Of a stretch of DNA of 64,000 nucleotides, positions 15,834 to 36,457 are shown piece after piece. The stretch's first letter is position 1. Every line of letters begins with the position of its first letter. This DNA comes from Gammaproteobacteria bacterium. Its GTDB lineage: Bacteria; Pseudomonadota; Gammaproteobacteria; CBDBNL01; JAAOII01. The position numbers and the translations under genes were made by a program. The notes under the pieces were generated by a model that saw only the letters and a program-made list of their open reading frames with translations, was not told where the DNA came from and searched no databases. The stretch lies in NCBI GenBank assembly GCA_965207945.1, contig OZ242303.1:1280935-1344934 (forward strand). Reading direction: 5' to 3'.

Positions 15834-17621
15834 TTATTTTTTTAGAGCAGGCCAGACTTTCACCGCTTGTTCGTATAAGAACTCTCCTCTTTTTTGTATT
15901 TTATCTTCATTCCAAGTATCAGAGCCAAGAAATCTATCGTCAACAAAAGTTTTTATTCCTTTAGCATATTCTTCTAATCCATTTTTTCCATCTTTTCCAG
16001 ATTTTTTGATTTCCCATGCATCATTATTAATTGAATTATTTAATTTGGAAGACAGTATAGTCAAATTACCCATCATTAATATCTTTTCATTACGTACTCT
16101 TTCATCTATTCCATTTAATGGCCAGTTTTTTTCCCACTTTTTAGGCATTATATGTTCTATTTGGTAATCGTCAAATCTAAGCAAACTAGTGCAATCTTTC
16201 TTATTCCGCATTGATAATTCTAAAAGATAAAGAACTGATTTAGAATAAGAGCTAATTAATTTAGATTCCATAAATCCCTTTTTAAATTGTTCATCATTAG
16301 GAAACTCTTCTGTTTTAGCAATTCCTATAAATCGTTGTTTTAATTTTTCTAGGGTATCTACTTTCCCAGAAATAAAACTATTAAATACCACACCATAATG
16401 TTTAGCGCTCCCCTTACAAACTGCGCGTCTAACAAAATAATTCACTAATAAATCAAACATTTTATCTTGTTCATCTTGCACCTTTACATTAACTAATATA
16501 AATAACAAATAAGGAATAATAGGGGTAACAGGAATACCAAAAGTAACTATATTTATCTTATCGGAAAAGGAGCCAAAATCAACTTGTTCGTACAGTTTTT
16601 TGTAATTAATCTTTTCTTTATATATTTCTGATTTCTCAATAATATCATGAATGAATTTTTTATCTCCAGATTTAATCTTATTAATAAGGAGGTAATTTTT
16701 ATATCTATCATACAGTTTGTCTATAGTAATTGGTTTATCCTTAGTTACTGACTTATTCTTTGTTACTGGCTCATCCTTATTTGCTAACTTATCTGCATTA
16801 ATGGTTTTATCATCTGTATAGGATTTTAATAATAAAAAAGATTGTAAGAAAAAATCAATGTTTTTACGCTTATTTTTTCCCGTGCCTATACCAGCACCCC
16901 AAAAATTTTTCTCATCCTCTTCAAAGTATTTCCGCCATGTCTTTTTATATAAATCCCAGCTAGACTCATCAGAATTGAATAATAGATTTTTTAATAGTTC
17001 TGCGGTAGTAAGAGAAACTCCAATAGAATTAAGGGTATCAAAAATTTGTTGCTCGTCCTCTTTTTCGTCTAAGTCTATCCCTATAAAATAAATCTTTGAT
17101 AAAAGAGATTGCCAGTCCTGAATATTTGACTTTGGTATAATATTTTTTTCAAAATATTTATAGCATTTTAGAACTTTATTATCAACATATTCACTTTCAA
17201 TGTCTGTATTTAATTCTCCATTAATTATAGTTTCAAATATTTCTCTATCATTATGATTATGTTCAAGAATTATTTTATTATCTGTTATACTGGAAAACAA
17301 CATATTCTTTAAACTGTCACCATTTTTTTCTAACTTACTAGCCACACACTTATATAATAAAAAAATAGAAGTTAATCTTTGTTGACCATCAATCAAAGAA
17401 CGAACCTCTCCAATTTCTTTATTCATTGGAGTCTTTTGTTGCTTTAATATAATAGGTCCCATAAAATAATTAGGGATATCATTATCAATCAAATTATGAA
17501 TATCATCTAAAAACCTTTCCCAGTGTTCTTCTTCCCAGACATAGCTCCTTTGAAAGAATGGAATTTGGATTATTCTGTGTGGATTTAATACATCCGCTAA
17601 ATTTATTCGCCCTTCTTTCAT
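15834..17621 (-). CDS. DUF262 (ParB-like) + DUF1524 (HNH/His-Me) protein, GmrSD/SspE-like type IV restriction endonuclease
   Basis: N-terminal IQIPFFQRSYVWEEEHW (DUF262 DGQQR/FQR motif; IDGQQRLTSIFLL is also present) and C-terminal DDYQIEHIMPKKW (DUF1524 His-Me finger). Confidence 0.75.
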   Translation of the reverse strand: MKEGRINLADVLNPHRIIQIPFFQRSYVWEEEHWERFLDDIHNLIDNDIPNYFMGPIILKQQKTPMNKEIGEVRSLIDGQQRLTSIFLLYKCVASKLEKNGDSLKNMLFSSITDNKIILEHNHNDREIFETIINGELNTDIESEYVDNKVLKCYKYFEKNIIPKSNIQDWQSLLSKIYFIGIDLDEKEDEQQIFDTLNSIGVSLTTAELLKNLLFNSDESSWDLYKKTWRKYFEEDEKNFWGAGIGTGKNKRKNIDFFLQSFLLLKSYTDDKTINADKLANKDEPVTKNKSVTKDKPITIDKLYDRYKNYLLINKIKSGDKKFIHDIIEKSEIYKEKINYKKLYEQVDFGSFSDKINIVTFGIPVTPIIPYLLFILVNVKVQDEQDKMFDLLVNYFVRRAVCKGSAKHYGVVFNSFISGKVDTLEKLKQRFIGIAKTEEFPNDEQFKKGFMESKLISSYSKSVLYLLELSMRNKKDCTSLLRFDDYQIEHIMPKKWEKNWPLNGIDERVRNEKILMMGNLTILSSKLNNSINNDAWEIKKSGKDGKNGLEEYAKGIKTFVDDRFLGSDTWNEDKIQKRGEFLYEQAVKVWPALKK

Positions 17622-17799: not shown

Positions 17800-19302
17800 A
17801 TGACGCATACTTTTATAAAAGACGAAGAGCTAATTGAAGAAAGCTATCAAATAGAAGACCTGTTGAACTTCAAACCTATTATCAATGACTTCAAAGAAAG
17901 GATTAATAAGATCAAGAAAAATTCAATTGTCGGTCTCATTGGACCTTATGGTTCTGGTAAGAGTACTATGCTTTATCAAATATATAAAGATAAAATTAAT
18001 ATAAATAATGAAAATAAGGATGAAGCAAATAACCATCAAACCTCAGAAAATGAGGGCAACGAACAGACAGAACAATGGTTTGTTTTTGATGCTTGGAAAT
18101 ACCCAGAGCGTAAGGACTTATGGGAGGGGTTTGTTTTAGATATAGCAAAGCAACATGATAAGATATCATTTGATAAAGCAAGAAATAAAATTGATGGCAA
18201 ACAAGGAGAGCGTAAAGAAAATGCCACTAATACGATGATAGACATGGCTACTATAACAATGGGTGTAATTTCTCTTTTCTCATCAGCAGGCCTTACTTCT
18301 ATATTCGCTCCAATAATTGGTTCACTTAAAAATTTAACTTACCTTTTCAGAACTTCTCCCGTAAGAAGAGTATTTGAATTTCAAGAACTACTATCTGATA
18401 TCATCAAAGAAACAGAGAATCATATTTTTATAATTATAGAAGATATAGACAGATCAGGAGATATGGGAATATTTTTTTTAGAAACCCTTAAACATTTCAT
18501 AAAGAATCTCAAGGAAGACCCAAATCGTAAAGTAATAGTCATAGTACCAATAGGGAATGATACCTTCTATAAATATCACCCTACTCGGGACTCTTACTTA
18601 AAAATTTTAGATTATCAAATCTCCTTCAACTCTTCATTATTAAACTTTACTAAATTTATTGAAAATACTATAGATATTGATATAGCTATTGAAAATTTTA
18701 AGAATGCAAAAGAAAAATCAGAAATTGAAGCTGCCATGGAACTTGGAACTCCAGACAATATGATTAAAAAAGAAAGTAAGTATACAGATTTATTCCTACA
18801 AAAAATGTTTATAACGCACATTCGTTACCTTTTTGAAACCATGATTTTAAATGAAAGACAAGGAACTATCCGTGATATTAAAAGTATACTTAGAAAAGTA
18901 AATTCAAATTTTAATGAACTAGATGAAGATATAAAAAAATTAATAGATATAAGAATACTAATGCTATTTACAGCCATAGGGCATTTTTATAGAGGTGAAG
19001 AAAATGATCCATGTAGTTTCTTCGCTGTTCAACGCGATTCCTCCCACCCTGAAAATATAGTTACGTGGGCTAACGATAAATTTTGGGGTAAAGATTTTTT
19101 TATAATGATCATGCAGGAAAAACCAAATATTGATGAAATTAAACTTAAAAAGTTTACTATTGATACCGTCAATACTGGACCTCTTATAATAAGTAATCCA
19201 GTAGATGAATATGAAGATAGAGATACTTACTATATTATGGACATCTATTTTAAGATTACTAAAGTCCATATTAACTATCTTCCAAAAGGTTCTAAACTCT
19301 AA
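17800..19302 (+). CDS. KAP-family P-loop NTPase (500 aa)
   Basis: Walker A GLIGPYGSGKST, KAP motif WFVFDAWKYPERKDLW, and an inserted TM segment MIDMATITMGVISLFSSAGLTSIFAPIIGSL. Confidence 0.75.
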   Translation: MTHTFIKDEELIEESYQIEDLLNFKPIINDFKERINKIKKNSIVGLIGPYGSGKSTMLYQIYKDKININNENKDEANNHQTSENEGNEQTEQWFVFDAWKYPERKDLWEGFVLDIAKQHDKISFDKARNKIDGKQGERKENATNTMIDMATITMGVISLFSSAGLTSIFAPIIGSLKNLTYLFRTSPVRRVFEFQELLSDIIKETENHIFIIIEDIDRSGDMGIFFLETLKHFIKNLKEDPNRKVIVIVPIGNDTFYKYHPTRDSYLKILDYQISFNSSLLNFTKFIENTIDIDIAIENFKNAKEKSEIEAAMELGTPDNMIKKESKYTDLFLQKMFITHIRYLFETMILNERQGTIRDIKSILRKVNSNFNELDEDIKKLIDIRILMLFTAIGHFYRGEENDPCSFFAVQRDSSHPENIVTWANDKFWGKDFFIMIMQEKPNIDEIKLKKFTIDTVNTGPLIISNPVDEYEDRDTYYIMDIYFKITKVHINYLPKGSKL

Positions 19303-19424: not shown

Positions 19425-20624
19425 TCAATCCACAAACACACCATCAAAAAAATTAACAATATCAGCATTAATCTCAAGTAAAAATTCTCTTCTATCAAAT
19501 CCTTCTGGATCTCTGGCACCGGGGAAATCTATCTCTTTTAGCAACCATTCAGGAAATGGTGGTACAAAAGCATAGTGATGCACTCCTTCATATACCTTAT
19601 AGATATGTTCTCTTGTGCCAAGCGATTTATGCAGATGCTCGGCATGAAATGGAAACTTAAGCACATTATCATCTCCTAATCTATATATAGCTATATCTGC
19701 ATTGGAGTTTTGAATTTCCTCTGCTGTAAAAATAACTGCAGCTGGGGCTACCACCGCAATTGCTTTAAACGGCACGGGCGATTCAAGTGGTTCAAACTCT
19801 GGACTAAACTTTCTATCATCAGTTGGAGTTCTCTTTCCAATTCTCTTAACTATTCCCTGGATTGTTACACGGATAATCCCTTTAAACCAAGTCAATGTCT
19901 TTTTCCACCATGGTCCTGAACCACTACATGCTGGGTCTTTGGCTGCATTGTTGCTACAGTGCGTTATAAATTGTTGCATGCTGGGAGTTATCCCGCTTGT
20001 GGCAAGCACTGTCAGCCCTCCTAAAGAATAGCCGAGCGCCCCAATATTATCATCGTCCATTATCTGTTTTATAGTGGCATCTGACTCAGCAACCTCCAAC
20101 GTATGTGATAACTCATCTATCCTAATATTTATGACGGGGAATAGTTGCCTGCCTTTTTTCAACAACTGATCATTGCTATGTTGAGGCGCAATTACTACAT
20201 AGCCGGCTCTTGCAAGCTCCGCAGCTGTCCCGCGATGATTTCTGTAACGTCCCATTACCCCATGAGAAAGCAATATAACTGGATATTGCCCCGCCGCAGG
20301 TTCGCCCTCCCAAGCCCATTTAGGACGGAAAGGTCCCCACTCTTGCTCAAACTCCTCAGCAAAACTTGGATACCATACCCCCAACTCTAAGCCGCTTTCG
20401 CCTAATCCCCCTACTTCTTCTATAATCATAAACCCAGCATTATATTTTTCCTGCGCGGACGCAAGTTGCCCCGCTACGACCACAAGAAGTATAAAGCAAA
20501 GTTTAATTAAAAAAGATGAATAGATTGTGCGCAAGTTATAACTCGCCACTAAGGTTGTAATATACACACCGCAAATAGTGCGAGCTGATTGTATACCTGA
20601 CTGCATATAATTATTGATTAACAT
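19425..20624 (-). CDS. secreted/membrane-anchored alpha/beta-hydrolase (dienelactone hydrolase / PAF-acetylhydrolase-like)
   Basis: N-terminal hydrophobic signal-anchor, nucleophile elbow GYSLGG (GxSxG), and VILLSHG. GC is higher than in the neighbouring defence genes. Confidence 0.6.
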   Translation of the reverse strand: MLINNYMQSGIQSARTICGVYITTLVASYNLRTIYSSFLIKLCFILLVVVAGQLASAQEKYNAGFMIIEEVGGLGESGLELGVWYPSFAEEFEQEWGPFRPKWAWEGEPAAGQYPVILLSHGVMGRYRNHRGTAAELARAGYVVIAPQHSNDQLLKKGRQLFPVINIRIDELSHTLEVAESDATIKQIMDDDNIGALGYSLGGLTVLATSGITPSMQQFITHCSNNAAKDPACSGSGPWWKKTLTWFKGIIRVTIQGIVKRIGKRTPTDDRKFSPEFEPLESPVPFKAIAVVAPAAVIFTAEEIQNSNADIAIYRLGDDNVLKFPFHAEHLHKSLGTREHIYKVYEGVHHYAFVPPFPEWLLKEIDFPGARDPEGFDRREFLLEINADIVNFFDGVFVD

Positions 20625-20769: not shown

Positions 20770-22578
20770 CTACTGTTCAGATAATTTTGCTTCCAAGAAT
20801 TCAAATATTTTTCTAAATTTATCTTTAGTTATTTCATCAAATGTAAATTCATCTTTTGAAATATACAAATTTTCAATTGCAGTATTAAGCATTTTTTTAT
20901 GATTCCCGTTCAACTCATTATCACCATAATAGCTTTTAATTATTTTATCTCTTTCTGTTTCGGTAAATAAATTTTCTATTCTATATTTTTTCCAGTTACT
21001 ATCAATGGACTCAAAGGTGAAAATTTTATTTGCGATATCTGATGTAATATCATGAATATATTGCGCTCTTGCTTCTTGGCCTCCTTTATCTGAATCAAAT
21101 AGTGCAATAAATTTTTTATTCCATGCGATATACAAACGAAAAATTTGATCATACTTATTAGCTCCTCCACCAGGGTAAAAATTAATATCATATTTTTTTT
21201 CAAATATAACTTCAGAGAAGTACTTAAATACGTAATAATCATTTTTACCCTCTGTAAAAACAATAGATTTAACTAACTCAAGTTTGCTAGGGCAGTATTG
21301 AAGTGCATCAAGTATTGGCTTAAAATGAGTTTCATCATTTTTACCATTAGCAACAAAATTTTTATAGAGAGTTGCATCTATATCAGTTTCCGTCACATTA
21401 GACTCTCCAATATCAGAATAACTAATTGCTTTATTATTAACAATAAATGTTCCAGGTAACCATATAGGGTTTATTAGATGATGACTATGTGTTGAATATA
21501 TTAGTTTACAATTAGAAACAATTTTTCCTAAAGTTAGTAATAATTTCTGTTGAGAACTTTGATGTAAATTACTTGCTGGCTCATCCAGTAAAAATAAAGT
21601 CTCTCCTGGATCACTTGAACGAGATTTACGAAATACTGTAAATATTAAGAAACTAAAGAACCAGCTAAATCCTAAACTTCTTTCATCTATAAAATAACTA
21701 TCATCCCCCTGCTTAATTTTTAATGTAAGATAATAATTATTATCCTCTGCATGTTCATATTTTAATACCACCTCTTTCATACTAGTAGTACCAAAAATTT
21801 GCTCCCACTTTCGTAGTATTTCATTATTAAGCTTAGCTAATATTTTATTTAATAATGATTCTAGTGCATCTTTAGTACCCTCATCTGTTGCTTTCATTCT
21901 ATTTAATAAACTTTCCTCAATACTCAAATTATCTCCGATAGATTTTAAAATATCGGCAATAATTTGTCTATATTCTTGTTGCTCAGGACTTGCATTATCC
22001 AATTCCTCTAAATAAATTTTTCGTGGGAATCTAAAAAGAAAATCTTGATAATATAGAATTTTAGGTAAATATTTTTTGTTAATTAAATTAACAACATCTT
22101 TCCAGGCCTTGTGATCTTTATAATCATATAATTTTTTATTCTTTTTACCTTTGCTAGATTTACCCCAAATATTTAATCCATATATATTATTTATCCAATT
22201 ATTCTCACAAGGTTCTGAACTTTTAAATTTATATTCCCTACTAATAGTTATAAAACCCTTTATTTTCTCAATATTAAAATTATGATTGAATTTTAAATAT
22301 TTTTTAATTTCTTCTATCTCATATTCTGCAAATTCAAGTTCTGCTCGAATGCAAACAATATCATTGAATTCATGTTTTAAGCTTTTAGGAATTAATGTAT
22401 GAATATCTTCTTTATTAATACCATTTCTAAAAACATTAATTGCTTCTAATATTGAAGTTTTACCGCTTTCATTAAGTCCAACTAAAGTAAAAATATTTAG
22501 GTTAGATTTATTTTTTAAATCCAACTCAATTTTAGTAATACCTTTAAAATTAATTATTGTAAATTTTGTATATTTCAT
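20770..22578 (-). CDS. OLD-family nuclease: N-terminal ABC/AAA ATPase + C-terminal Toprim domain
   Basis: N-terminus KFTIINFKGITKIELDL..NIFTLVGLNESGKTSILEAI (OLD/AAA_15-type Walker A). C-terminus VFTEGKNDYYVF and FDSDKGG (Toprim E and DxD motifs). It lies 35 bp downstream of and co-directional with the res gene. Confidence 0.7.
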   Translation of the reverse strand: MKYTKFTIINFKGITKIELDLKNKSNLNIFTLVGLNESGKTSILEAINVFRNGINKEDIHTLIPKSLKHEFNDIVCIRAELEFAEYEIEEIKKYLKFNHNFNIEKIKGFITISREYKFKSSEPCENNWINNIYGLNIWGKSSKGKKNKKLYDYKDHKAWKDVVNLINKKYLPKILYYQDFLFRFPRKIYLEELDNASPEQQEYRQIIADILKSIGDNLSIEESLLNRMKATDEGTKDALESLLNKILAKLNNEILRKWEQIFGTTSMKEVVLKYEHAEDNNYYLTLKIKQGDDSYFIDERSLGFSWFFSFLIFTVFRKSRSSDPGETLFLLDEPASNLHQSSQQKLLLTLGKIVSNCKLIYSTHSHHLINPIWLPGTFIVNNKAISYSDIGESNVTETDIDATLYKNFVANGKNDETHFKPILDALQYCPSKLELVKSIVFTEGKNDYYVFKYFSEVIFEKKYDINFYPGGGANKYDQIFRLYIAWNKKFIALFDSDKGGQEARAQYIHDITSDIANKIFTFESIDSNWKKYRIENLFTETERDKIIKSYYGDNELNGNHKKMLNTAIENLYISKDEFTFDEITKDKFRKIFEFLEAKLSEQ

Positions 22579-22612
22579 ATATAGTTAATAATTACAGTTT
22601 AGTTTATTAAAA

Positions 22613-25600
22613 TTAAATTAATAATTTGTTACCTAAGTTTTCTAAACTATCAAGCCAGTATTTCTGATATTTTTTTGTACTAGTAGCGGTAGATTGGGGA
22701 TGAAATAAAAGAAGCTTAACCTTTACTTTAAATTTGCTACGGCTTGCATCCTTATAATAGAATTCTTTACTGGCACCATTTTCCTCTTCAAATACATCAA
22801 TAAAACCATCAATCTTACGTTCACCTGATATGTATTCTGGCCCTTTAGGATCTATAAATAAAATTGTATACTCATCTCCCTTCTGCAACCAAAAAATAAA
22901 ATCTGGTTTAAATTTTGCCATAGTGTTTCCCTTGGGGTTATAGTAAGGGATATATATTTGGTCAAGGTGTTCATCAAGTTTTGAGAATTTCCACCAATCA
23001 TAAGAAGCAAAGATATTCTTTTCGTCTTTTAAATATTTAATTAATTTATTTATAAACTCAACTTCACTATCAACATTTATAGCATGAATGAAGTAGTCAA
23101 TTTTTTTCTCCTCCGGTACTATAAGAGGAATATAATAGTGGTTTTTTATATGGTGGATACCAATACTTTTATCGTCATACATAAAACCTTTTTTGTTATG
23201 AGAGCTCCTCGCTAGCAACTCATTATAAGCATCCCTATCACCACTTTTAAAAGTTGCATTCAATTCATCTTCCGAAGGTGTAACACAATCTCTTACTTGA
23301 ATAATTGATTCTTTGAGCCGCTCCACCCCACTGTCTCCTTTATATTGAATTCTCTTAAAATGAACTATCTCATTTTTTAGTTCATTAATTACATCAACAT
23401 CTTCGTTTTTAATTTTAAAGTAATTAAATATCCTACCAAATAGTAGATCTGAGTTATTAATACTCTTACCCTCATTAAAATTAAAACGTCCTAAACCCTG
23501 TTTATTATTAAGGGTGTTTTTTACTTCCTCAATAAATTTTGGTTCAACGTCATACTTCATTAATATTATTTTTTCACCTAAATATTTAAACAATTTATTG
23601 CTCATCTTAAAATCTTTTTCACTGATAATGAATTGTTGTTTATTAGTTCTCCCAGATACCGCCCCTTCTGTTTCCTTATATGTTGGAATTAATAATAGTT
23701 TCCCCTCTCTATTTTCTTTAAATAAATCTCCTATCGCATGCTCTCGTTTTTCTTTAGCAAGCACCTTCATTATTTCATTAATATTTTTTGGTTTAGTGCC
23801 AAAAACAAATAAAGTTTCCAATGGCGCAACATAATCTTTTATATCATTATATTTACGACGCATATCTTCATCTAATTCTCCACCACTACATAAAGAGTTA
23901 ATTCTTTTTCTTTTTCCTTTGACTGGTTCAATCCTCACTCCTCTACCAACTGATTGTAAAACAAATTTTTTAGCATCTGGTCCAACCCCTATATTAATAA
24001 ATAAAATAATATTAGGCCGATTAGAATCCCAACCCTCATAAAAAGCTCTGGAACCCATAAGTATGCTTATATCAGAATCATCTTCATTTAATTTTTCAAA
24101 AACACTTTTGTGCTCAATCTTTTCATTAATCTCATAATTCTTAGTTACGTTTTTTATCCATTTTGATATATCACCTATCTTAACAAGAGCAAAGGGTTTA
24201 TGAGATTTCTTAACCTGTAGAATTGCCTCTTTATTATTACCAGGAATTGTCAATATTTCAAAATTACCAGCAGCTTTTGAATTGAATATCTCATATAAAA
24301 CATCATCATATTTAATGTTTTGTAATGCTTTATTATTAAATTTAAAATCTCCTCCCTCGTATTTGTAACTAACACTATCAGAAAATTCAGTCAATAGTTC
24401 TTTCTTAACCTCCATGAATAGCCCAGTTCTTATTTTGTTGTTAGCTATCTTATGCAACTCAGCAAAAAATAATCCTAAGTCAGATGTTTTTGAGCTAACT
24501 GAATTAACCAAAGTCAATAGCAATGGCTTGTGGTATAAATCTTTATGTTTTCTTTTAATTTTCTTAGAATATTGGCTAATATATGTTGCTAAAACAAGTG
24601 TCTTTAATACCGTTTTTTGTTTCTCTTGCGGAGAAAAATCTGTCAGTTTACGAAAGCCAGCTACCTCTTCATCAAAAAGACATATATTCTTACCATAACC
24701 TTCTTCAATAAATTTAGATAAGTTAAAATTGAATGCACAGGTAACATAATCATGATCTTCGGTAAATGTTGCAGAAAAATTAAACAGAAAACCGTTTCTA
24801 GAAAGAATAGAATATAAAACCTGTCCTTTACTCTCTTCTTTTTTACCTTTATGCGCCTCATCTAATAGAATATACCATTCTCCATTATTATCATAATTTC
24901 TAAAATCAGTTTTATTTTTCTTTTGAGTATCAGTAATAAGGTCAGAACGATAATAAAAAATATTGATTTCATTTTTAGAAAAAGATATTTGATTATTTCT
25001 TTTAATATTATCATACTCTCTCAAATTCTTTAATACAATTTTACTGCTTGGATGATGGCTATTATATTCCTCTACATGATTTTTAAATTGTGTAAGTAAA
25101 TCCTCTCTATGGGATAAAAACAAAATATCTTTGCGCGGTATTTCACCACGATTCATTAAATCTCTAAGCATAGAGATAAGTTTAACAATAACTAATGTTT
25201 TACCTGAACCAGTTGCCATCCAAAAGTTCATTCTATTAATAAAATACTCAAAAGAAATTTTGCCATCCTCAACAGGAAACTCTTGGTCATAATCTAATAA
25301 ATGTTTAAATATTTCTTTGCGCTCAGGTTCTAATTCATAATCCAAGGATTCAAGTCGTGGAATATTTAATGCTTCGTAAAGTTCAAAAAAATATTTCTTT
25401 CTTATTTGTTGAAGTTCATTTTCATCTCTATAACTGGCTTCATCATCATTTTCATAAAATTTATAAAGTGCTTTAATAGCATTTTTTAAGGCATCTTGTT
25501 GGAAATCAAAAAGTTGTTTGCTTTGTGAAAAATTTTTTATATCATTAAACTGCCATTCAGCAGGAAGAGTATCGTTCTCTATATTGTTAACTATTTCCTC

Positions 25601-25618
25601 TAAATGTAATATATCCAT
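22613..25618 (-). CDS. res: type III restriction enzyme Res-like subunit (SF2 helicase + C-terminal PD-(D/E)xK nuclease)
   Basis: Helicase motif I WMATGSGKTLVIV, motif II ILLDEAHKG, motif VI-like QSVGRGVRI. C-terminal YILFIDPKG (D..D/ExK-like). It starts 1 nt after the mod stop. Confidence 0.7.
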   Translation of the reverse strand: MDILHLEEIVNNIENDTLPAEWQFNDIKNFSQSKQLFDFQQDALKNAIKALYKFYENDDEASYRDENELQQIRKKYFFELYEALNIPRLESLDYELEPERKEIFKHLLDYDQEFPVEDGKISFEYFINRMNFWMATGSGKTLVIVKLISMLRDLMNRGEIPRKDILFLSHREDLLTQFKNHVEEYNSHHPSSKIVLKNLREYDNIKRNNQISFSKNEINIFYYRSDLITDTQKKNKTDFRNYDNNGEWYILLDEAHKGKKEESKGQVLYSILSRNGFLFNFSATFTEDHDYVTCAFNFNLSKFIEEGYGKNICLFDEEVAGFRKLTDFSPQEKQKTVLKTLVLATYISQYSKKIKRKHKDLYHKPLLLTLVNSVSSKTSDLGLFFAELHKIANNKIRTGLFMEVKKELLTEFSDSVSYKYEGGDFKFNNKALQNIKYDDVLYEIFNSKAAGNFEILTIPGNNKEAILQVKKSHKPFALVKIGDISKWIKNVTKNYEINEKIEHKSVFEKLNEDDSDISILMGSRAFYEGWDSNRPNIILFINIGVGPDAKKFVLQSVGRGVRIEPVKGKRKRINSLCSGGELDEDMRRKYNDIKDYVAPLETLFVFGTKPKNINEIMKVLAKEKREHAIGDLFKENREGKLLLIPTYKETEGAVSGRTNKQQFIISEKDFKMSNKLFKYLGEKIILMKYDVEPKFIEEVKNTLNNKQGLGRFNFNEGKSINNSDLLFGRIFNYFKIKNEDVDVINELKNEIVHFKRIQYKGDSGVERLKESIIQVRDCVTPSEDELNATFKSGDRDAYNELLARSSHNKKGFMYDDKSIGIHHIKNHYYIPLIVPEEKKIDYFIHAINVDSEVEFINKLIKYLKDEKNIFASYDWWKFSKLDEHLDQIYIPYYNPKGNTMAKFKPDFIFWLQKGDEYTILFIDPKGPEYISGERKIDGFIDVFEEENGASKEFYYKDASRSKFKVKVKLLLFHPQSTATSTKKYQKYWLDSLENLGNKLLI

Positions 25619-25619
25619 A

Positions 25620-28010
25620 TCATTCCCACCAGATTAGTGGTTTAATTTCTTTGTAATCTATTTCTTGGGTATTTATTTTTGTACCATCTTCAAATTCAAC
25701 TTCATTAGCAGTAATTTTTCTAATATTTTTACCTTTCAGATTGGAAAGAGTTTCAGCAATATCAATATCCGGATATAAAGCACTTAGATCTACTTTAACT
25801 TTATTATTTTTATAGTCAATTGTTATCGCCTCTGTCATCTTCTCATCCTTCATAAAAACATATTCTTGATATGGACTTGCGCCAACTTGTAAATCTAAAA
25901 CATCACTATCCGCATATTTACATTTGCTTAATGTATCCTCATATTGTTCTAGTTCGTAGTATTTAAAAAATCCACCACCATTCCAATTAACTTCTTTAGA
26001 TATACCACAAGGTTCATTCCTTCCAATACCTGCCAATACTTGTTTCATTCTAAATAAAATATCTGATTCAAAATAGTTACCCATTTCTACCCCTACCCAT
26101 CTTCTTTGTAATTTATGAGCGGAAGCAATTGTAGTTCCTGATCCCATAAAAAAATCAAGGACTAAATCATTAGGTTTTGTAGTTAAAGAAATTATTCTCT
26201 TAAGTAATTGTTCAGGTTTTTGGGTAAGTTCTGATCCATGTGGAGTATATTCTTTAACATTTCTTTTAATCTTATTAGAATGTAGTTCCTCATATTCACT
26301 GGCATTCCATGTATCTTCAATATTATATGCGCCATCTTTGGTCTTAAGTCCTATTTTATAAACTTTACCTTTATCATCTTTTATAGTTACCTTAACGTTT
26401 GTAATTTTTTGTTTATCCACACCCCATTTATTATAAATGCTTTCTAATTCATTATTAATGGTATCCTTTCTAAATGAGCTATATTTAATTTTTGATTCTT
26501 TTTTCTTAAAGAAGTGTTCCGATCGACTATTTTTAGTGAAAATAAAAATAGTATCATGATTTCTGACAAAAGCATCAACTTGAGTTTTATATCCTGACAC
26601 CCACCCTATTCTCCAAATTATTTCATTGATAAAGTTTTTCTTAGAAAATATATTAGATAATAATATCCTTCCTAAATGTTGAGCGTTCCAATCTAAATGT
26701 AAAAAAATACTACCGCTCTGATTAATAAATTCTTTAGATAATCCTAGTCTATTATCCATAAGAGTTAGCCAAGTGCTATCCTGAAACCTATCAATATACT
26801 CAAAATCATTCCCAGTATTGAAGGGAGGGTCGATGTAAACAACTTGTACCTTTTGTTTAAACTTAGGCAATATAGTATTAAGTGCTTGATAATTTTCGCT
26901 CTTAATTAACCAACCATCTAGTTGATTATCTAAGTCATCGAATAAAGAAAGTATTTTAAATTTTAAATCTGGAAAATACTTAGTATCTATAGGTAGATGA
27001 GCATATTCACTATTATCTATATCTTTTGCGTTAAATTCTTCTTCAACTATACCCATTTCCTGCCATTCTTTTAATTGTTTATTAAAGTTAGGGTGCTTAA
27101 TTATTTTTTGGACTAGTTTCTTGTCAGTAATTCTATCCAGAGTGATTACATAGTTACTCTTACGGACAAACTTGGGTTTATTCCAAATCTTACCTAATTC
27201 GTTTTCAAATTGAGAAATAAAATCTATAATTTTATAAGTAATTATTTTTAATATCCTTAATTGCTCTATTCTTTCTGGAGTCCATTCATTATCCTCTTGC
27301 CAAAAGTACTGATAACTCCAAAGCTTAAATTGCTCCATAAGAAATTCCTTGGCATTCTTATTAATAAAATAATCAACTTTAGTTTGTTTTTCGAAAAGAT
27401 GAAATCCGCGTTCTAAATCTTCTGCTTTAACTTGTAATCCTGCTTCCTTAATTGATTTTAATATTGCATCTATGTCTGTCTTTTGTCCTTTTTTAGAATA
27501 GCTAACCTCTAAATTAACCAGTCTATCTTTTATATTCTTAAATATATATACAACCGAATTTTTTTCATTAGCTTTTTTGTGTCCCATATTACTGACATCA
27601 AAAAATAATTTATAACCACCTGATTCGTTAGGGTTAATTTCAATACTTCTAAAGATACTATCCGTCTTAACATAATAAAGCATATTAGTCTTCCAAAATA
27701 AAGATACATCTTGCTCCTCTGTATAAACTCTCTCGTATATATTATTATGGAAAGGGGTTGAATTAAAATAGATGGAACCATTCTCACTGAAATAGCGCTT
27801 GAAAAATGAATAAAGTTTATTAAAAATATCCTCTCTAAATTTAGGATTTTTACGTAACTGCACGTCAATATCTTTGTCAAGAATTTTCTTAATTTGAGAA
27901 TAATATCCATGCTTAATCTTCATCAAATTAACAAACCCTCCTTTGCCTTCAATCTTTGCACCAGCAAAAATATCTTCTAAAATTTGGTAAAACTTTTCTT
28001 CCTTGTTCAT
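25620..28010 (-). CDS. mod: DNA methyltransferase (beta-class N6A/N4C, type III Mod-like), paralog 1
   Basis: Motif IV YIDPPFNTGNDFEY precedes motif I LVLDFFMGSGTTIASAHKL (beta-class order). About 340-aa N-terminal and about 165-aa C-terminal extra domains are shared with paralog 2. Confidence 0.75.
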   Translation of the reverse strand: MNKEEKFYQILEDIFAGAKIEGKGGFVNLMKIKHGYYSQIKKILDKDIDVQLRKNPKFREDIFNKLYSFFKRYFSENGSIYFNSTPFHNNIYERVYTEEQDVSLFWKTNMLYYVKTDSIFRSIEINPNESGGYKLFFDVSNMGHKKANEKNSVVYIFKNIKDRLVNLEVSYSKKGQKTDIDAILKSIKEAGLQVKAEDLERGFHLFEKQTKVDYFINKNAKEFLMEQFKLWSYQYFWQEDNEWTPERIEQLRILKIITYKIIDFISQFENELGKIWNKPKFVRKSNYVITLDRITDKKLVQKIIKHPNFNKQLKEWQEMGIVEEEFNAKDIDNSEYAHLPIDTKYFPDLKFKILSLFDDLDNQLDGWLIKSENYQALNTILPKFKQKVQVVYIDPPFNTGNDFEYIDRFQDSTWLTLMDNRLGLSKEFINQSGSIFLHLDWNAQHLGRILLSNIFSKKNFINEIIWRIGWVSGYKTQVDAFVRNHDTIFIFTKNSRSEHFFKKKESKIKYSSFRKDTINNELESIYNKWGVDKQKITNVKVTIKDDKGKVYKIGLKTKDGAYNIEDTWNASEYEELHSNKIKRNVKEYTPHGSELTQKPEQLLKRIISLTTKPNDLVLDFFMGSGTTIASAHKLQRRWVGVEMGNYFESDILFRMKQVLAGIGRNEPCGISKEVNWNGGGFFKYYELEQYEDTLSKCKYADSDVLDLQVGASPYQEYVFMKDEKMTEAITIDYKNNKVKVDLSALYPDIDIAETLSNLKGKNIRKITANEVEFEDGTKINTQEIDYKEIKPLIWWE

Positions 28011-28122
28011 GTGTAAGATTTATAGATAATTAATGGTATTATCATACCATTAAATAAAACTTTCTTTCAGCAAAATTAACCTATAACACAATAGATATGA
28101 TATTACACAAAAATGTATCATA

Positions 28123-30411
28123 TCATTCCCACCAGATTAGTGGTTTAATTTCTTTGTAATCTATTTCTTGGGTATTTATTTTTGTACCATCTTCAAATTC
28201 AACTTCATTAGCAGTAATTTTTCTAATATTTTTACCTTTCAGATTGGAAAGAGTTTCAGCAATATCAATATCCGGATATAAAGCACTTAGATCTACTTTA
28301 ACTTTATTATTTTTATAGTCAATTGTTATCGCCTTTGTCATCTTCTCATCCTTCATAAAAACATATTCTTGATATGGGCTAGCACCAACCTGTAAATCTA
28401 AAACATCGCTATCTGCATACTTGCATTTGCTTAAGGTATCTTCATATTGCTCTAGTTCATAGTATTTAAAAAATCCGCCACCATTCCAATTAACTTCTTT
28501 AGATATACCACAAGGTTCATTCTTTCCAACGCCTGCCAATATCTGCTTCATTCTATTAAGAATTAGAGGATCAAAACTTACTCCCATCTCCACACCAACC
28601 CATTTTCTGTTAAGCTTGTGAGCGGCGGCTATAGTAGTCCCCGCCCCTAAGAAAAAGTCAGCAACTATATCATTCTCGTTGCTTGATGATTCTATAATTC
28701 TTCTAAGCAGGTTTTCAGGTTTTTGTGTCAAATAGCCAGTTCTTTCTTTGGATTGACTTGCAGTTCCTAAAGAAGGTATTTCTGTCCACCAATCATGCAA
28801 AGTCCTACCTTTATATTTATCCCAGTAAACTCTTTTTTCTTTATCCCATTGCCAATATCTATCTCCATTCTCATCAACTTTATTAAAAGATTTCTCATTT
28901 TCTTCTCTCCCTTTATATATAGGATTAAAAATATATTGTTCATCTTTACTATAGAATATAATATTATCGTGTTTTCTGCCCCACATTCCCTTTGCACCTG
29001 TTCCCGCATAACACCAAACTATGTCATTCCTAAAATTATCTTTTCCAAATACTTCATCCATTATAATTCTTCCGTAATAGTGAGCATTATGATCTAAATG
29101 TAGATAAAAATTTCCTGTTTCTTTCAATAGCTTATGAGCCAATGAAATGCGATCAAACATAATTGATAACCAAGTACTATCTCTAAATTTGTCAATATAT
29201 TCAAAATCATGTCCAGTATTAAAAGGTGGATCCATATAGATGGTTTGAATCTTTCCCGTAAACTTAGGTAATATAGAATTAAGCGCCTGATAATTTTCAC
29301 TCTTAATTAGCCATCCATCTAATTGATTATCTAAGTCATTAAATAAAGAAAGTATTTCAAACTTTAAATCTAAAAAATGCTTAGTATCTATTGGTAGGTG
29401 AGCGTATTTACTATTATCTATATATTCCTCATTAAATTTTCCATCAAATATACTAAGTTCTTTCCATTCTTTTAATTGCTTATTAAAATTAGGGTGATTA
29501 ACTATTTTTTTAACTAGTTTTTTATCTGTGATTTTATCCAGAGTTATTACATAGTTACTCTTGCGGACAAACTTGGGTTTATTCCAAATCTTACCTAATT
29601 CATTTTCAAATTGAGAAATAAAATCTATTATTTTATAAGTAATTATTTTCAGTAACCTTAGCTGCTCAATCCTATCTGGAGTCCATTCATTATCTTCTTG
29701 CCAAAAATACTGATAGCTCCAGAGCTTAAATTGCTCCATAAGAAATTCTTTGGCATTCTTATTAATAAAATAATCAACTTTAGTTTGTTTTTCAAAGAGA
29801 TTAAAGCCGTGTTCTAAATCATCTACTTTAGCTTGTAATCCTTCTTTTTTAATTGACTTAAGTATTCCGTTGGTGTCTGTTTTTTTACCATTTTTAGAAT
29901 AACTAACCTCTAAATTAACCAATCCATCTTTTATATTCTTAAATATATATATAACTGATTTCTTTTCATTGATTTTCTTGTGTTCCATATTACTGACATC
30001 AAAAAATAATTTCCAATTATCTGATTCGTTAGGATCAATTTCAATGCTTCTAAAGATACTATCTGTCTTAACATAATAAAGTATATTGGTTTTCCAAAAT
30101 AAAGAGACATCTTGTTCTTCCGTATAAACCTTCTCATATATATTATTATGAAAAGGAGTTGAATTAAAATAGATAGAACCATTCTCACTAAAGTAGCGAC
30201 TAAAAAACGAATAAAGCTTATTAAAAATTTCTTCTCTAAATTTAGGATGATTACATAACTGTACATCAATATCTTTTTCAAGAATTTTCTTAATTTGAGA
30301 ATAATATCCATGCTTAATCTTCATTAAATTAACAAACCCTCCTTTGCCTTCAATCTTTGCTCCAGCAAAAATATCTTCTAAAATTTGGTAAAACTTTTCT
30401 TCCTTGTTCAT
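28123..30411 (-). CDS. mod: DNA methyltransferase (beta-class N6A/N4C, type III Mod-like), paralog 2
   Basis: Motif IV YMDPPFNTGHDFEY and motif I IVADFFLGAGTTIAAAHKL. The N-terminal about 390 aa are about 85-90% identical to paralog 1 and the C-terminal about 150 aa about 99% identical. The central catalytic/TRD core is divergent. Confidence 0.75.
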   Translation of the reverse strand: MNKEEKFYQILEDIFAGAKIEGKGGFVNLMKIKHGYYSQIKKILEKDIDVQLCNHPKFREEIFNKLYSFFSRYFSENGSIYFNSTPFHNNIYEKVYTEEQDVSLFWKTNILYYVKTDSIFRSIEIDPNESDNWKLFFDVSNMEHKKINEKKSVIYIFKNIKDGLVNLEVSYSKNGKKTDTNGILKSIKKEGLQAKVDDLEHGFNLFEKQTKVDYFINKNAKEFLMEQFKLWSYQYFWQEDNEWTPDRIEQLRLLKIITYKIIDFISQFENELGKIWNKPKFVRKSNYVITLDKITDKKLVKKIVNHPNFNKQLKEWKELSIFDGKFNEEYIDNSKYAHLPIDTKHFLDLKFEILSLFNDLDNQLDGWLIKSENYQALNSILPKFTGKIQTIYMDPPFNTGHDFEYIDKFRDSTWLSIMFDRISLAHKLLKETGNFYLHLDHNAHYYGRIIMDEVFGKDNFRNDIVWCYAGTGAKGMWGRKHDNIIFYSKDEQYIFNPIYKGREENEKSFNKVDENGDRYWQWDKEKRVYWDKYKGRTLHDWWTEIPSLGTASQSKERTGYLTQKPENLLRRIIESSSNENDIVADFFLGAGTTIAAAHKLNRKWVGVEMGVSFDPLILNRMKQILAGVGKNEPCGISKEVNWNGGGFFKYYELEQYEDTLSKCKYADSDVLDLQVGASPYQEYVFMKDEKMTKAITIDYKNNKVKVDLSALYPDIDIAETLSNLKGKNIRKITANEVEFEDGTKINTQEIDYKEIKPLIWWE

Positions 30412-30601: not shown

Positions 30602-31240
30602 ATGCCAAATGATTGTAAAAAAACTATTGATGATCTTAATCAAATTATTAAGACTGATCCAAATAATGCATATGCTTACGATGATCGCGGCCATACTAAA
30701 TTTAAATTACAAGATTATCAAGGAGCCATTGATGATCTTAATCAAGCCATTAATATTGAACCAAATAATGCAAAATTTTACAGTAATCGTGGCGTCATTA
30801 AACTTACAATTAAAGATTATAAAGGAGCTATCAATGATTTTACTGAATCTATTAAAATTGATCCAAATGAAACCCGTTATTACAATAATCGTGGCAACGC
30901 TAAACTTGAAATTAAAGATTACAAAGGGGCTATCAAAGATTATCAAATAGCACTTAAAATTAACCCAAATAATGCAAATGCTTACAATGATCGCGGTATC
31001 GCCAAACGTGAATTAAAAGACTATAACGGGGCTATCAATGATTTTACTCAGGCTATTGAAATTGAACCGAATGATGCGAATGCTTACAATAATCGTGGTA
31101 ATATTAAATATAAATTAAAAGACTATAACGGGGCTATCAATGATTATCAAATAGCATTAAATTTAAGTGATAATAAATATTTAACTGGAAGAATAACTAA
31201 ATCCCTTAAGCAAGTTCAGAAAACATTAAAAGATTCGTAG
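30602..31240 (+). CDS. orphan TPR-repeat protein (6 TPRs; same subfamily as the FRG-TPR genes; possibly an N-terminally truncated remnant)
   Basis: Starts inside a TPR helix (MPNDCKKTIDDLNQIIKTDPNNAYAYDDRG). The repeats (AYNNRGNIKYKLKDYNGAINDY) match those at 35.6-36.3 kb, 37.4-37.9 kb and 9.3-11.0 kb. Confidence 0.55.
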   Translation: MPNDCKKTIDDLNQIIKTDPNNAYAYDDRGHTKFKLQDYQGAIDDLNQAINIEPNNAKFYSNRGVIKLTIKDYKGAINDFTESIKIDPNETRYYNNRGNAKLEIKDYKGAIKDYQIALKINPNNANAYNDRGIAKRELKDYNGAINDFTQAIEIEPNDANAYNNRGNIKYKLKDYNGAINDYQIALNLSDNKYLTGRITKSLKQVQKTLKDS

Positions 31241-31384: not shown

Positions 31385-32815
31385 TCATGCCACTAATTCT
31401 TCTATTTGCAAAACACGAGATTTTAAGGTATCTATAAAAACATCACACTGTTCTTTCATAAGCTGATTAAAATTTCCAGATTCATTATCTTTTGGCACTT
31501 TTAGAAACATCACATGAAAATGAATATCACTACCATGTTGTCTAATAACATCAGAAATTAATTCCAAAGATTGCTCCACATTAAAGTGCGCGTCCCATTC
31601 GTCTTCAGGCATTGGGTAGATAAACCCACATCCGCCTATTGGTCGTTCATTAGCATATTGACCTATATAGGTATGTAATTGGAAAAGGTCTTCTCGCTTT
31701 ACGCCTTTATTGGTATTGAAATTTTTATACTTAACATCAAATACATAAAGTCCCCCATTACTTTCAAACACAATATCTGGTATTAACTTACGAACCCCTT
31801 TATTAGAGTATCCTGCCGTTGGTATTGGATGTTCTTTTCCGGATACTTCTCGTAATATTATGCTATTTCTTATCAGAAGTTTTCTAATAAAATATTCAAA
31901 TAGCATTGACACATCAAATAAGAAAGCGCTATCATCTTTTATAGAACCAAAATTAATTCCATGTTGAGTTATGATCCTCTTTGACAGATCTATCAAAATA
32001 TTATAGTCGTTGTAAAAAGGATTAGTAAAATGTGGGGTTTCCATAATTTCCTTATAACTTCTTTTTATTCCTTGATTTGCTATTACAAAAGAATTGTAGA
32101 TGCCTCTTGTCTGCTCACAAAAAGAATAGCTCTTGATTAACTCATAAGCTTTAATAAAAAGGGAAGTTGCCGGACTACTGTAACTATGTTCTCGGTATGA
32201 GCAAAGATATTTACCTGATGTTTTATTGAGAAAGTAATCAACTGGGTCAATGCTGCCCCTAACCTTTGACGTCATTTCGGTCTTAGTTACATAAGTTTTG
32301 GGTATACCCAGACGGTATGCTCGCATAAATTTAATATTCCATAGGTATGCCAATAGCCAGTCATGCCCTTTCTTATTTCCCGCCCCACCAATATTTTCTA
32401 CTTCACGGAAGCCATCTGTATCTGCAATTATGTACTGTAAGAATGAATCACCGAAACGGGAACTAATATTCAATCCATAATCGCCCTTCTTTACAAAACC
32501 AACAACATTGCCAGTCTTTAGTGTGAAGTTATCTTTATTGCTACCAGTTATGTTAATAAACTCATCATTAGTATTATGCTTATACTCTTCAGAATTGAAT
32601 AGAAAATCAGTATGTCCGTTAGTATCATTAAATGCACGCTGCATATCGGATGATATAGATTGGAGGAATAGAAATGCTGGTTCATCTATTTGTCCGTTAC
32701 TTTCTAAATTTGCATGGTAAGAGTTTCTGTTCCATTTATTGACCAGCATTCCTTCCTCGGATTGATAACTTTGGTTATCACGAAGAGTTATACTTTTATG
32801 ATTTTGATTTTCCAA
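31385..32815 (-). CDS. mcrC: McrC-like type IV restriction nuclease subunit
   Basis: Immediately downstream of mcrB. C-terminal PD-(D/E)xK: LIPDIVFESNGGLYVFDVKYK. Confidence 0.7.
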   Translation of the reverse strand: MENQNHKSITLRDNQSYQSEEGMLVNKWNRNSYHANLESNGQIDEPAFLFLQSISSDMQRAFNDTNGHTDFLFNSEEYKHNTNDEFINITGSNKDNFTLKTGNVVGFVKKGDYGLNISSRFGDSFLQYIIADTDGFREVENIGGAGNKKGHDWLLAYLWNIKFMRAYRLGIPKTYVTKTEMTSKVRGSIDPVDYFLNKTSGKYLCSYREHSYSSPATSLFIKAYELIKSYSFCEQTRGIYNSFVIANQGIKRSYKEIMETPHFTNPFYNDYNILIDLSKRIITQHGINFGSIKDDSAFLFDVSMLFEYFIRKLLIRNSIILREVSGKEHPIPTAGYSNKGVRKLIPDIVFESNGGLYVFDVKYKNFNTNKGVKREDLFQLHTYIGQYANERPIGGCGFIYPMPEDEWDAHFNVEQSLELISDVIRQHGSDIHFHVMFLKVPKDNESGNFNQLMKEQCDVFIDTLKSRVLQIEELVA

Positions 32816-32820
32816 AGCGT

Positions 32821-34554
32821 CTATTTATTACTTTCCATTCCAAACACTTTCCTAAATTGTTGGATGAGTTCATTCTCTTTACCACCTGTACCACGAAGAT
32901 ACTCATGTAATAAAGGATAGATGCAATCTACCCATATTTTATTTCTAACCTCATCAAGAGTTAAATTATTTGGATACTTCATATTCATCAGATATGCATG
33001 TCCTATTTGATAGTCAGAACCAAGCAGCTCCGTATTTGTAATTTCTTTATTAAGAAACTCAAGATTTTCTGCTAATCCAACCCAATCTTGTTTTTTCTTT
33101 GCCAGATCCTGCTTTAGAATATCAATATTAGGCACAACTTCTTCCCAATGGAATCTTCTGCGCAGAGCGAAATCAAAACTTTCAATACTGCGGTCAATAG
33201 TATTCATAGTACCAATTAGACGAATATTAAATGGAATAAAGAATTGGTATCCCAACTCATTGTTAAACATACCTGTTTCTTTATCATTAAGGGTTGAATA
33301 TTGGGTTTTGATAACACCCTTTACACCCCGATATTCCAGACAATACATTAACTCTCCAAGAACTCGTGAAAGTTCTGCCCTATTAATTTCATCTATTATG
33401 AAGTAAAAAGGAGGGATGGCATCTATAAGTAATATAGAAGAATCTCCTATATCAAAAATATATTTCCAATGATTTTCTTTTTCTGTTAACCTACTTTTGC
33501 TATTCTCAATGTCTTTGATTGTAAGTGAACTGAAATTTTGGTTTTCACATATTTTGTGATTATAAATGTCAAGTTCCCATTTACTAGCTTTTATACAGAA
33601 ATCCTTGAATACCCCGTTTTGTAACCTAAGTTGAGTCGCTTCATTTTTATCTGGCACAGGCCGCAAACCTTCCATAAAATCTTCATAACTAAACGAAGGA
33701 TGAAACTGAACAAATTCATGCTGCTCTGCATACATATAGTAACTTGTTGGCGCAAATTTCTTTTTCCATTCATTAAAGTGTGATTCGGCCTGTTTCTTAG
33801 CTTCGTATGTCTTACCAGTTCCAGGAGGACCATATTTAATCACTTGATTTTTAATGGCGAATATATCTTTCATATTTTCATTTTGGGTTGTCGTATCGTT
33901 ATAAGGAGCTACTATATTTTTTTCAGGGTTTTCTATATGTTCATTTAAGCGCCAAACAAACATACTTAAATAAAATTCATCTGTCTTTTCATTTTCTAAT
34001 TCATTCTGAAGTTTTTCTCTAATTTCTTTCATTAGAAATTGATTTCTTGCGAACCATTCTCGGGATCTGTTATTACGACCTGTATTATAAGGATATTCAG
34101 ATATCATTTTTTCCTTCATTAACCATTTAAATACTGCATCAAATTTTTTAACACTAACTGTAGTAGATACCCCAAGGGTACTTGCTGCAGCTATCCTATT
34201 AATCAATAAATGATTCTGTTTACCTTTCCAATTTTTATAAAGTTCATGATAAGTATTCTCTGTTGGATTTTTGATAAGAGACTCAAGGGCAGACATAAAA
34301 TTATCATCCTTAATAAATGAGTTAAATCTCTTAGGTAGTAAACCCGATTGTTTGCAACTAGCAATTCCGTTATCTCTAGTTTTAATTAATTTATCTAAAA
34401 AATCTTTATCCTGCTTCCATGATTCATCTTTATTAATAGTGTAATGAACATGATTAAAAAAATTTTTGTAATTGTTGTACCAAATATTAAATCCTTTGTT
34501 ATCCTTGTCAACAAGACTTTCATAATAATGTTTTAATTTGTTTTCCATAATCAT
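32821..34554 (-). CDS. mcrB: McrB-like AAA+ GTPase with an unusual approx. 215-aa N-terminal (putative DNA-reader) domain
   Basis: Walker A VIKYGPPGTGKTY and the McrB hallmark FYFIIDEINRAELSRVLGELMYCLEYRG. The N-terminal domain is homologous to the ORF at 38073-38822. Confidence 0.8.
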   Translation of the reverse strand: MIMENKLKHYYESLVDKDNKGFNIWYNNYKNFFNHVHYTINKDESWKQDKDFLDKLIKTRDNGIASCKQSGLLPKRFNSFIKDDNFMSALESLIKNPTENTYHELYKNWKGKQNHLLINRIAAASTLGVSTTVSVKKFDAVFKWLMKEKMISEYPYNTGRNNRSREWFARNQFLMKEIREKLQNELENEKTDEFYLSMFVWRLNEHIENPEKNIVAPYNDTTTQNENMKDIFAIKNQVIKYGPPGTGKTYEAKKQAESHFNEWKKKFAPTSYYMYAEQHEFVQFHPSFSYEDFMEGLRPVPDKNEATQLRLQNGVFKDFCIKASKWELDIYNHKICENQNFSSLTIKDIENSKSRLTEKENHWKYIFDIGDSSILLIDAIPPFYFIIDEINRAELSRVLGELMYCLEYRGVKGVIKTQYSTLNDKETGMFNNELGYQFFIPFNIRLIGTMNTIDRSIESFDFALRRRFHWEEVVPNIDILKQDLAKKKQDWVGLAENLEFLNKEITNTELLGSDYQIGHAYLMNMKYPNNLTLDEVRNKIWVDCIYPLLHEYLRGTGGKENELIQQFRKVFGMESNK

Positions 34555-36418: not shown

Positions 36419-36445
36419 CTCTTCTAAAAACAATAAATAGTAAGA

Positions 36446-36451: not shown

Positions 36452-36457
36452 AATAAA

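Follow-up and report, generated by a model that had tools for sequence, protein, structure and literature searches.

We analysed a 64-kb stretch of a gammaproteobacterial genome (contig OZ242303.1; the whole stretch is referred to as the window) whose minus strand carries, in transcription order, two genes for DNA methyltransferases (modA and modB), a gene for a helicase-nuclease (res) and a gene for a predicted ATPase-nuclease of the OLD family (the OLD-like gene). We read this array as two separable defence modules, a type III-like restriction-modification (R-M) system and a single OLD-family gene, placed in one transcription unit within a defence island, and not as one coupled system; the probability we assign to this reading is about 0.7. 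On this reading, what looked like a new four-gene system is a restriction operon followed by an exchangeable back-up gene.

An earlier note on this DNA, made from the sequence alone, had described four co-directional minus-strand genes with gaps of 112 bp (modA-modB), 1 bp (modB-res) and 34 bp (res-OLD-like) and had named them as two Mods, a Res and an OLD-family protein. The coordinates of the open reading frames (ORFs) agree exactly, and domain matches bear out the four identities. The note had also proposed a specific coupled type III R-M-OLD system. Comparison with other genomes and metagenomes, whose loci are numbered L001 onward, does not uphold this proposal: none of 80 Mod-Res loci contains an OLD-like gene and none of 80 OLD-like loci contains this Res.

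Separate occurrence of the OLD-like gene and the Mod-Res genes

The scan of GTDB species representatives produced 428 relatives of the OLD-like protein; 80 loci (36–58% identity) were examined. The family, with members of ~600 amino acids (aa), is widespread and uncharacterised. Genes of the window's Res family were sought beside the OLD-like genes and found in none of the 80 GTDB loci. The closest relatives of the window protein (61% and 60% identity) are tandem ~600-aa paralogs, L081/L082, situated among housekeeping genes on contig ctg6795 (L081 10001–13897); there is no R-M gene nearby, and an FRG-TPR gene lies beside the pair. Since all 80 GTDB loci are without this Res and the closest relatives form a stand-alone tandem pair, the OLD-like gene needs no Res. 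A recurrent partner was also sought in the 80 loci: no neighbour family is present in the majority of them, only type I hsd genes recur, and there is no conserved helicase neighbour. The tandem pair of L081/L082 raises the question of hetero-oligomers there.

The metagenome scan with Res gave 80 loci (45–51% identity). An ~800-aa Mod is present in essentially every locus with upstream DNA, and the order mod then res is conserved. As all 80 Mod-Res loci are without an OLD-like gene, Res needs no OLD-like gene; where tested, the genes downstream of res are housekeeping ones (aconitase, UvrA, RecG, TrkH). Adjacency of this Res family and an OLD-like gene, whose conservation the earlier note had proposed to check, recurs only in L083, a locus orthologous to that of the window.

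In many of the metagenome loci (L085–L164), mod and res are separated by inserted genes of the same orientation, and overlaps of 4 bp are frequent. The cargo found in Mod-Res loci includes a recurrent 334-aa RhuM-Fic protein, Fic, DUF6119, a PHP-ABC ATPase with Schlafen/AlbA_2 (L123, L136, L160), DarT-macro (L144), an AAA_13 (PrrC/RloC-like) ATPase located between mod and res (L162) and a proteasome-like protein (L138, L153). These insertions suggest that embedded defence or toxin genes use the type III-like Mod-Res family as a platform.

A swappable cargo slot after res

Two contigs of one metagenome, L083 and L084, carry a Res 79% identical to that of the window. The cca genes of both contigs fall into the same 90% cluster as the window cca, hence the two contigs represent orthologous islands. 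L083 has the order mod-res-OLD, and its DNA aligns with the window at 86% identity in one unbroken block that starts at the end of mod and includes all of res and the OLD-like gene; then follow an insertion (DUF5131 and a transposase) and the same alpha/beta-hydrolase gene as in the window (95%). L084 has mod-res at 85%. Here the homology ends at the res stop codon (window position 22599) and resumes at the alpha/beta-hydrolase (window position 20706, 96%), while the slot between res and the hydrolase is filled by a gene for a 705-aa DUF87/HerA-like ATPase and a KAP/STAND-like gene.

Since the OLD-like gene of the window and L083 gives way to the DUF87 ATPase in L084, the place following res is a slot whose cargo has been swapped between close relatives. 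The alpha/beta-hydrolase gene is the fixed right-hand border of this slot. The OLD-like gene is a co-directional accessory defence gene set against a multi-gene system and variable between related loci; the three orthologous islands with different cargo form a natural experiment on module exchange in defence hotspots.

The hydrolase gene of the window (dienelactone-hydrolase-like; 19425–20624, minus strand) lies just downstream of the OLD-like gene. It is 94–96% identical across the three orthologous islands, far better conserved than the R-M genes (79–86%).

Layout and co-transcription

All four genes are intact ORFs (Table 1). The modB stop codon stands 1 nt ahead of the res start codon. The res/OLD-like spacer of 34 bp has a counterpart of 43 bp in L083, and no terminator-like hairpin was found between res and the OLD-like gene. 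The short spacers and the missing hairpin suggest that the OLD-like gene is probably co-transcribed with res, and the tight co-directional gaps fit the operon-like packing that had been proposed for the array. A promoter scan returned 83 sites versus 74 expected from shuffling, a number not above expectation and uninformative in such AT-rich DNA.

Table 1. Features of the R-M/OLD-like array and of the surrounding island (nucleotide positions in the window)
Feature	Position	Strand	Remarks
modA	28123–30411	minus	762 aa; intact ORF
ModA target-recognition region	about aa 420–565, nt 28717–29154	minus	differs from that of ModB
modA/modB putative duplication junction	28011–28122	minus	112 bp
modB	25620–28010	minus	796 aa; intact ORF
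ModB target-recognition region	about nt 26217–26753	minus	differs from that of ModA
res	22613–25618	minus	1001 aa; intact ORF
Res helicase core	about aa 128–565, nt 23924–25237	minus	superfamily 2 (SF2)
Res PD..DxK motif	aa 905–925, about nt 22829–22921	minus	P905-D906...D923-x-K925
res/OLD-like spacer	22579–22612	minus	34 bp, AT-rich
OLD-like gene	20770–22578	minus	602 aa; intact ORF
ABC ATPase of the OLD-like protein	aa 1–372, nt 21463–22578	minus	
Putative divergent Toprim domain of the OLD-like protein	about aa 437–540, nt 20959–21270	minus	
KAP NTPase	11180–13990		island
GmrSD	15834–17621		island
STAND-like NTPase	17800–19302		island
FRG-TPR and TPR proteins	30602–31240, 34763–36418, 36514–37986		island
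McrC + McrB	31385–34554		island
cca	39023–40255		next to island

Two Mods and a Res with its own nuclease motif

Both Mod proteins match Pfam N6_N4_Mtase at about 1e-40 (ModA at 1.8e-41) and align over the full length with the PADLOC type III methyltransferase model PDLC03638 at ~750 bits (ModA at 7e-225); their closest solved relatives are the type III Mods 6k0w and 4zcf. As judged from sequence, the products of modA and modB are type III-like beta-class N6-adenine DNA methyltransferases, each with a central target-recognition region and each encoded upstream of res. The two proteins are 73% identical overall, ~90% in the N-terminal 400 aa and ~99% in the C-terminal 140 aa. The centre, between motif IV (DPPF) and motif I, is wholly divergent; in beta-class enzymes this is the target-recognition region.

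The 112-bp spacer between modA and modB starts, directly after the modA stop codon, with a vestige of the res start of ~11 nt; the rest is a ~95-bp copy of the mod 5' region (aligned to the modA upstream region and the modB/res junction). A promoter-like sequence with an extended −10 element, CTGAAA-18-TATGAT, is present in identical copies at 28070–28041 and 30471–30442. The res-start vestige and the copy of the mod 5' region mark the spacer as the apparent scar of an event in which mod was duplicated in tandem and a specificity region was replaced. Elsewhere, mod is present as one copy in L083 and L084 and as two tandem copies in L116. With mod duplicated and the target-recognition regions differing, one Res is probably served by two specificities.

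No simple-sequence repeats suggesting phase variation were found in the mod genes. The only tandem array found is TPR-coding and located at 30630–31145 (102-bp period, 5 copies, 73% matches).

Res matches ResIII at 3.5e-16. In an alignment of 24 sequences of the Res family the motifs ATGSGKT (Walker A), LDEAHKG, QSxGRGVRI, PDF and DPKG are invariant. At the motif level the protein combines an SF2 helicase-like ATPase with a C-terminal PD-(D/E)xK nuclease (PDF...DPKG), as had been claimed. We considered the OLD-like protein as a nuclease for a nuclease-less Res and rejected this idea: the PD..DxK motif is invariant across the Res family.

The label 'type III-like' appears accurate, given how distant the Res family is from textbook enzymes. 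In a comparison of the family profile with EcoP1I Res by hhalign, the alignment was restricted to helicase motif VI (35 columns; E 0.012, probability 3.6%), the match to PADLOC REase_III is partial and the profile found no solved structure among PDB sequences; homology of Res to the characterised EcoP1I and EcoP15I Res proteins was not detected. The AlphaFold2 (AF2) model of Res has a pLDDT score (predicted local distance difference test) of 45, too poor for a fold check.

The OLD-like protein

The N-terminal part of the OLD-like protein is an ABC-type ATPase. AAA_15 matches the protein over its full length (4.9e-22), and the motifs GLNESGKT (Walker A), LLDEP (Walker B) and THSHH (H-loop) are invariant in 32 homologs. 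A Foldseek search with the AF2 model also matched the heads of SMC and Rad50.

The C-terminal part is more divergent. Pfam OLD-like_TOPRIM scores 21.5 bits against a cutoff of 23.2 bits, that is below threshold. The residues E443, G444, D447, D495, D497, G500 and E535 are invariant in the 32 homologs; in the AF2 model (pLDDT 85), E443-G-K, D495-x-D497 and E535 are placed at the ends of beta-strands. The PADLOC 'Old' model aligns with residues 2–529 (1.7e-12), and the hhalign alignment with P2 Old passes through the EGK motif (E 3.2e-5). The top Foldseek matches are GajA (8.6e-15) and the Thermus scotoductus OLD protein TsOLD (1.2e-13), with alignments of 650–700 columns. On the grounds of the invariant E..DxD motifs, the alignments with the Old model and P2 Old and the fold matches to GajA and TsOLD, we accept the 602-aa product as a predicted OLD-family ATPase-Toprim protein with a divergent Toprim domain. 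Of the earlier assignment, the ATPase part stands firmly by AAA_15, while the Toprim part is sub-threshold by Pfam and agrees in motifs and predicted fold.

Proposed mode of action

In module 1, the type III-like R-M system, a Mod dimer would recognise and methylate an asymmetric site, and unmethylated DNA would be cut by Res, in which an SF2 ATPase is combined with a C-terminal PD-(D/E)xK nuclease. Type III R-M enzymes cleave in an ATP-dependent manner, using two inversely oriented unmethylated sites, and Mod hemimethylates.

Module 2 would be the single-gene OLD-family protein, in which an ABC ATPase sensor is fused to a Toprim nuclease and which should manage without any partner encoded in module 1. 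Judged by its analogues P2 Old, PARIS, Gabija and HEC-04, this protein would most likely stay inactive until activated by DNA structures or phage proteins associated with infection; once active, its Toprim domain would cut nucleic acid (tRNA or DNA), thereby aborting infection. P2 Old was described as an inactive tetramer that is destabilised by aberrant or phage replication DNA structures, leading to tRNA cleavage (10.64898/2026.07.10.737580). PARIS and Gabija respond to anti-restriction proteins, and HEC-04, an embedded gene in which ABC ATPase and TOPRIM are fused, was found to confer defence, for which Walker A and Toprim metal-site residues were needed (10.1101/2024.01.29.577857). Located 34 bp after res with no terminator between, the OLD-like gene would probably be co-expressed with the R-M genes as a second line of defence.

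Alternative readings

Several observations weigh against two separable modules in one transcription unit. The res-OLD block is kept as a unit in L083, as a functional pair would show; since L083 is an orthologous locus, this conservation is not independent evidence. Co-transcription is read solely from the spacing and the lack of a terminator-like hairpin, and both the substrate and the trigger of the OLD-like protein are proposed by analogy with relatives. The putative Toprim domain falls below the Pfam threshold, OLD-like_TOPRIM reaching E ≤ 0.01 in just 4 of the 32 family members; its profile, compared with PDB sequences, found no solved Toprim and hit Rab35 and MgtE at chance level. Finally, 23 of the 80 OLD-like loci (29%) lie inside type I R-M operons, as identified by neighbour clustering and Pfam scans, which could mean functional dependence on R-M, beyond co-location.

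The latter possibility leads to the rival that survives best, a guard function. Here the modules are genetically separable and functionally linked: the OLD-like ATPase would monitor R-M or its inhibition and, once triggered by anti-restriction proteins, DNA mimics or DNA ends from blocked restriction, would kill or arrest the cell. PrrC for EcoprrI and PARIS for Ocr are precedents. The hsdS gene is directly adjacent to the OLD-like gene in 20 of the 23 type I-embedded loci, always co-directional, with tight spacing. The type I linkage clusters in the phylogeny (it is shared by 15 of 22 nearest neighbours; permutation p about 0.001) and persists in subclades. Type III neighbours are present too: L016 contains mod-res-OLD-Schlafen, a canonical type III array that includes a 4-bp overlap, and L014 has a type III Mod immediately upstream of the OLD-like gene. 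The other tight neighbours are three methyltransferases, three GmrSD, three ResIII and single type II genes, the rest being housekeeping. The earlier note had set its proposal against a random distribution of OLD homologs relative to type III R-M genes; type III neighbours are few (these two loci), and relative to R-M overall the distribution is non-random. In general terms, this OLD-like family is indeed linked to R-M systems.

The guard function would also be in line with the res-OLD block kept at 86% identity in L083 and with the triggering of related ABC-Toprim systems by anti-restriction proteins (10.1101/2024.01.29.577857). However, about 50 of the 80 family members are without R-M genes at a distance of up to four genes, the subclade of the window protein (L001–L006, P0002/P0003) shows no R-M linkage and the OLD-like gene is missing from the 80 other loci of this Mod-Res family. 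The partner R-M types also vary (I, II and III), so that no specific protein contact can be conserved. In view of the 29% of the examined family members in type I operons, we give the guard link a low but real probability.

A broader version of the same idea would make the OLD-like family a distinct R-M-associated OLD branch, guarding restriction systems of any type, and the Mod-Res family a previously unrecognised platform for guard or abortive-infection cargo (OLD-like, RhuM-Fic, DarTG, RloC-like). This version is speculative, with the odds clearly against it. If it were true, members of the branch would fire when phage anti-restriction factors block R-M or when restriction products build up.

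Pure juxtaposition, with the OLD-like gene expressed from its own promoter in the res end or the spacer and the adjacency reflecting nothing but clustering in a defence island, appears improbable. The island is full of unrelated defence genes (KAP NTPase, GmrSD, McrBC, STAND-like NTPase), the slot after res is variable and AT-rich DNA yields many promoter-like sites, all of which this explanation would accommodate. Yet the OLD-like gene is co-directional with res, 34 bp away and with no terminator between; moreover, 96.7% of published embedded defence genes share the orientation of their host (10.1101/2024.01.29.577857), which points to co-regulation.

An obligate complex of Res, the Mods and the OLD-like protein, acting as one enzyme in which the Res motor would load Toprim as a further or as the principal nuclease, could draw on the 34-bp spacing without a terminator-like site, the same gene order in L083 and the overlapping type III mod-res-OLD genes of L016, but is highly improbable given that Res keeps its own invariant PD..DxK motif, that all 80 related Mod-Res loci are without the OLD-like gene, that the DUF87 ATPase takes its place in L084 and that OLD-like homologs mostly stand alone.

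Relation to known systems

The two-module reading places the OLD-like gene closest to Class 1 OLD genes, such as P2 Old and the OLD gene of T. scotoductus (Schiltz et al. 2019/2020). By gene context it resembles them: across the 80 loci it is a single gene without a conserved partner, be it UvrD, a retron or AriB, as is characteristic of Class 1. By predicted protein sequence Class 1 is accepted as the closest as well, the best solved relative being TsOLD (6p74, 8e-9), though very distant from the window protein (14–15% identity to the structures). In the published description, Class 1 OLD genes stand by themselves, at a distance from further defence genes (PMC10568477), whereas the OLD-like gene of the window is located in a defence island, 34 bp after res, and ~30% of its sampled relatives are in R-M operons. 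A family of 428 relatives with ~30% of the examined loci in R-M operons contradicts the 'isolated gene' view of single-gene OLDs (PMC10568477). Of 837 old genes, Schiltz et al. had already noted 107 in operons that are specific to a species and contain defence genes (PMC6755086), and YbjD, a Class 1 OLD of E. coli, gives anti-phage phenotypes upon induction (PMC13261556).

Gabija shares with the window an OLD-type ATPase-Toprim gene (predicted as such in the window) beside a helicase gene, and GajA is the top Foldseek match. A Gabija-like reading was rejected, since the partner helicase is not of the UvrD type: Res, the neighbour, belongs to the ResIII/DEAH proteins of SF2, brings a nuclease of its own and is accompanied by cognate methylases; it is no superfamily 1 (SF1) helicase of the UvrD/PcrA/Rep kind (GajB). 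In this respect the earlier note was right. In addition, the adjacency is not conserved for the window pair, and the length of 602 aa fits the shorter Class 1 OLDs better than Class 2.

The embedded gene HEC-04 resembles the OLD-like gene in arrangement, a fused ABC ATPase-Toprim single-gene module (predicted as such in the window) positioned co-directionally within or against a multi-gene defence operon. Among the 25 PADLOC matches listed (of 64 families) for the OLD-like protein, HEC-04 was not present; HEC-01A matched at 1.9e-6. The published analysis of embedding covered Hma, BREX, DISARM and type I R-M as host systems and did not include type III (10.1101/2024.01.29.577857), whereas the host in the window is a type III-like Mod-Res and the OLD-like gene is appended after res, not placed between the genes of the system. 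A type III-like Mod-Res family hosting diverse inserts extends the 'guilt-by-embedding' approach beyond type I R-M, BREX, DISARM and Hma.

PrrC/RloC and AbiL (RloA/RloB) are likewise abortive-infection ABC ATPase modules that serve as back-up in restriction operons once restriction has been overcome, and the PrrC/RloC-like AAA_13 gene of L162 belongs to a locus of the same Mod-Res family as the window's. The OLD-like effector differs from them: a putative fused Toprim takes the place of an anticodon nuclease domain or of RloB as a protein apart.

With EcoP1I and EcoP15I the window shares the order mod then res, beta-class Mods, in which DPPF precedes FxGxG and the target-recognition region is central, and the Res layout of an N-terminal SF2 motor followed by a C-terminal PD-(D/E)xK motif. 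The differences are an extra N-terminal region of ~360 aa in each of the window Mods, two Mods with different target-recognition regions per Res and a Res not detectably similar to that of EcoP1I beyond helicase motif VI.

No described precedent for the specific mod-mod-res-OLD arrangement was found in the searchable literature. Composed of separable modules, the arrangement is an instance of the known principle of defence genes embedded in defence systems, not a new system. Modestly new are the presence of the OLD-like family in R-M operons and the Mod-Res family as a rich host of accessory cargo.

The surrounding defence island

The R-M/OLD block is situated inside a ~30-kb defence island of low guanine-cytosine (GC) content (window ~8800–38500; 27–33% GC versus 43–50% in the flanks). 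The islands of L083 and L084 hold cargo partly different from that of the window. The CCA-adding enzyme encoded next to the window's island resembles the gammaproteobacterial type.

At 5925–11117 (plus strand) the window has a single ORF of 1730 aa that contains a complete valyl-tRNA synthetase (aa 14–937) and, in frame, ~800 aa of TPR repeats. The GC content falls from ~0.49 to ~0.30 where the synthetase part ends (around 8750), thus the low-GC island appears to start within the 3' extension of valS.

FRG-TPR fusions recur beside OLD-like genes or R-M blocks (window 34763–36418, L081 8339–9823, L083 1853–4954 and L084 18387–22355); one such gene adjoins the stand-alone tandem OLD-like pair of L081/L082. 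The TPR-coding repeats at 9300–11000 and 35600–37900, similar to the 30630–31145 array, cross-match each other and related contigs. Such repeats could be recombination substrates within the island.

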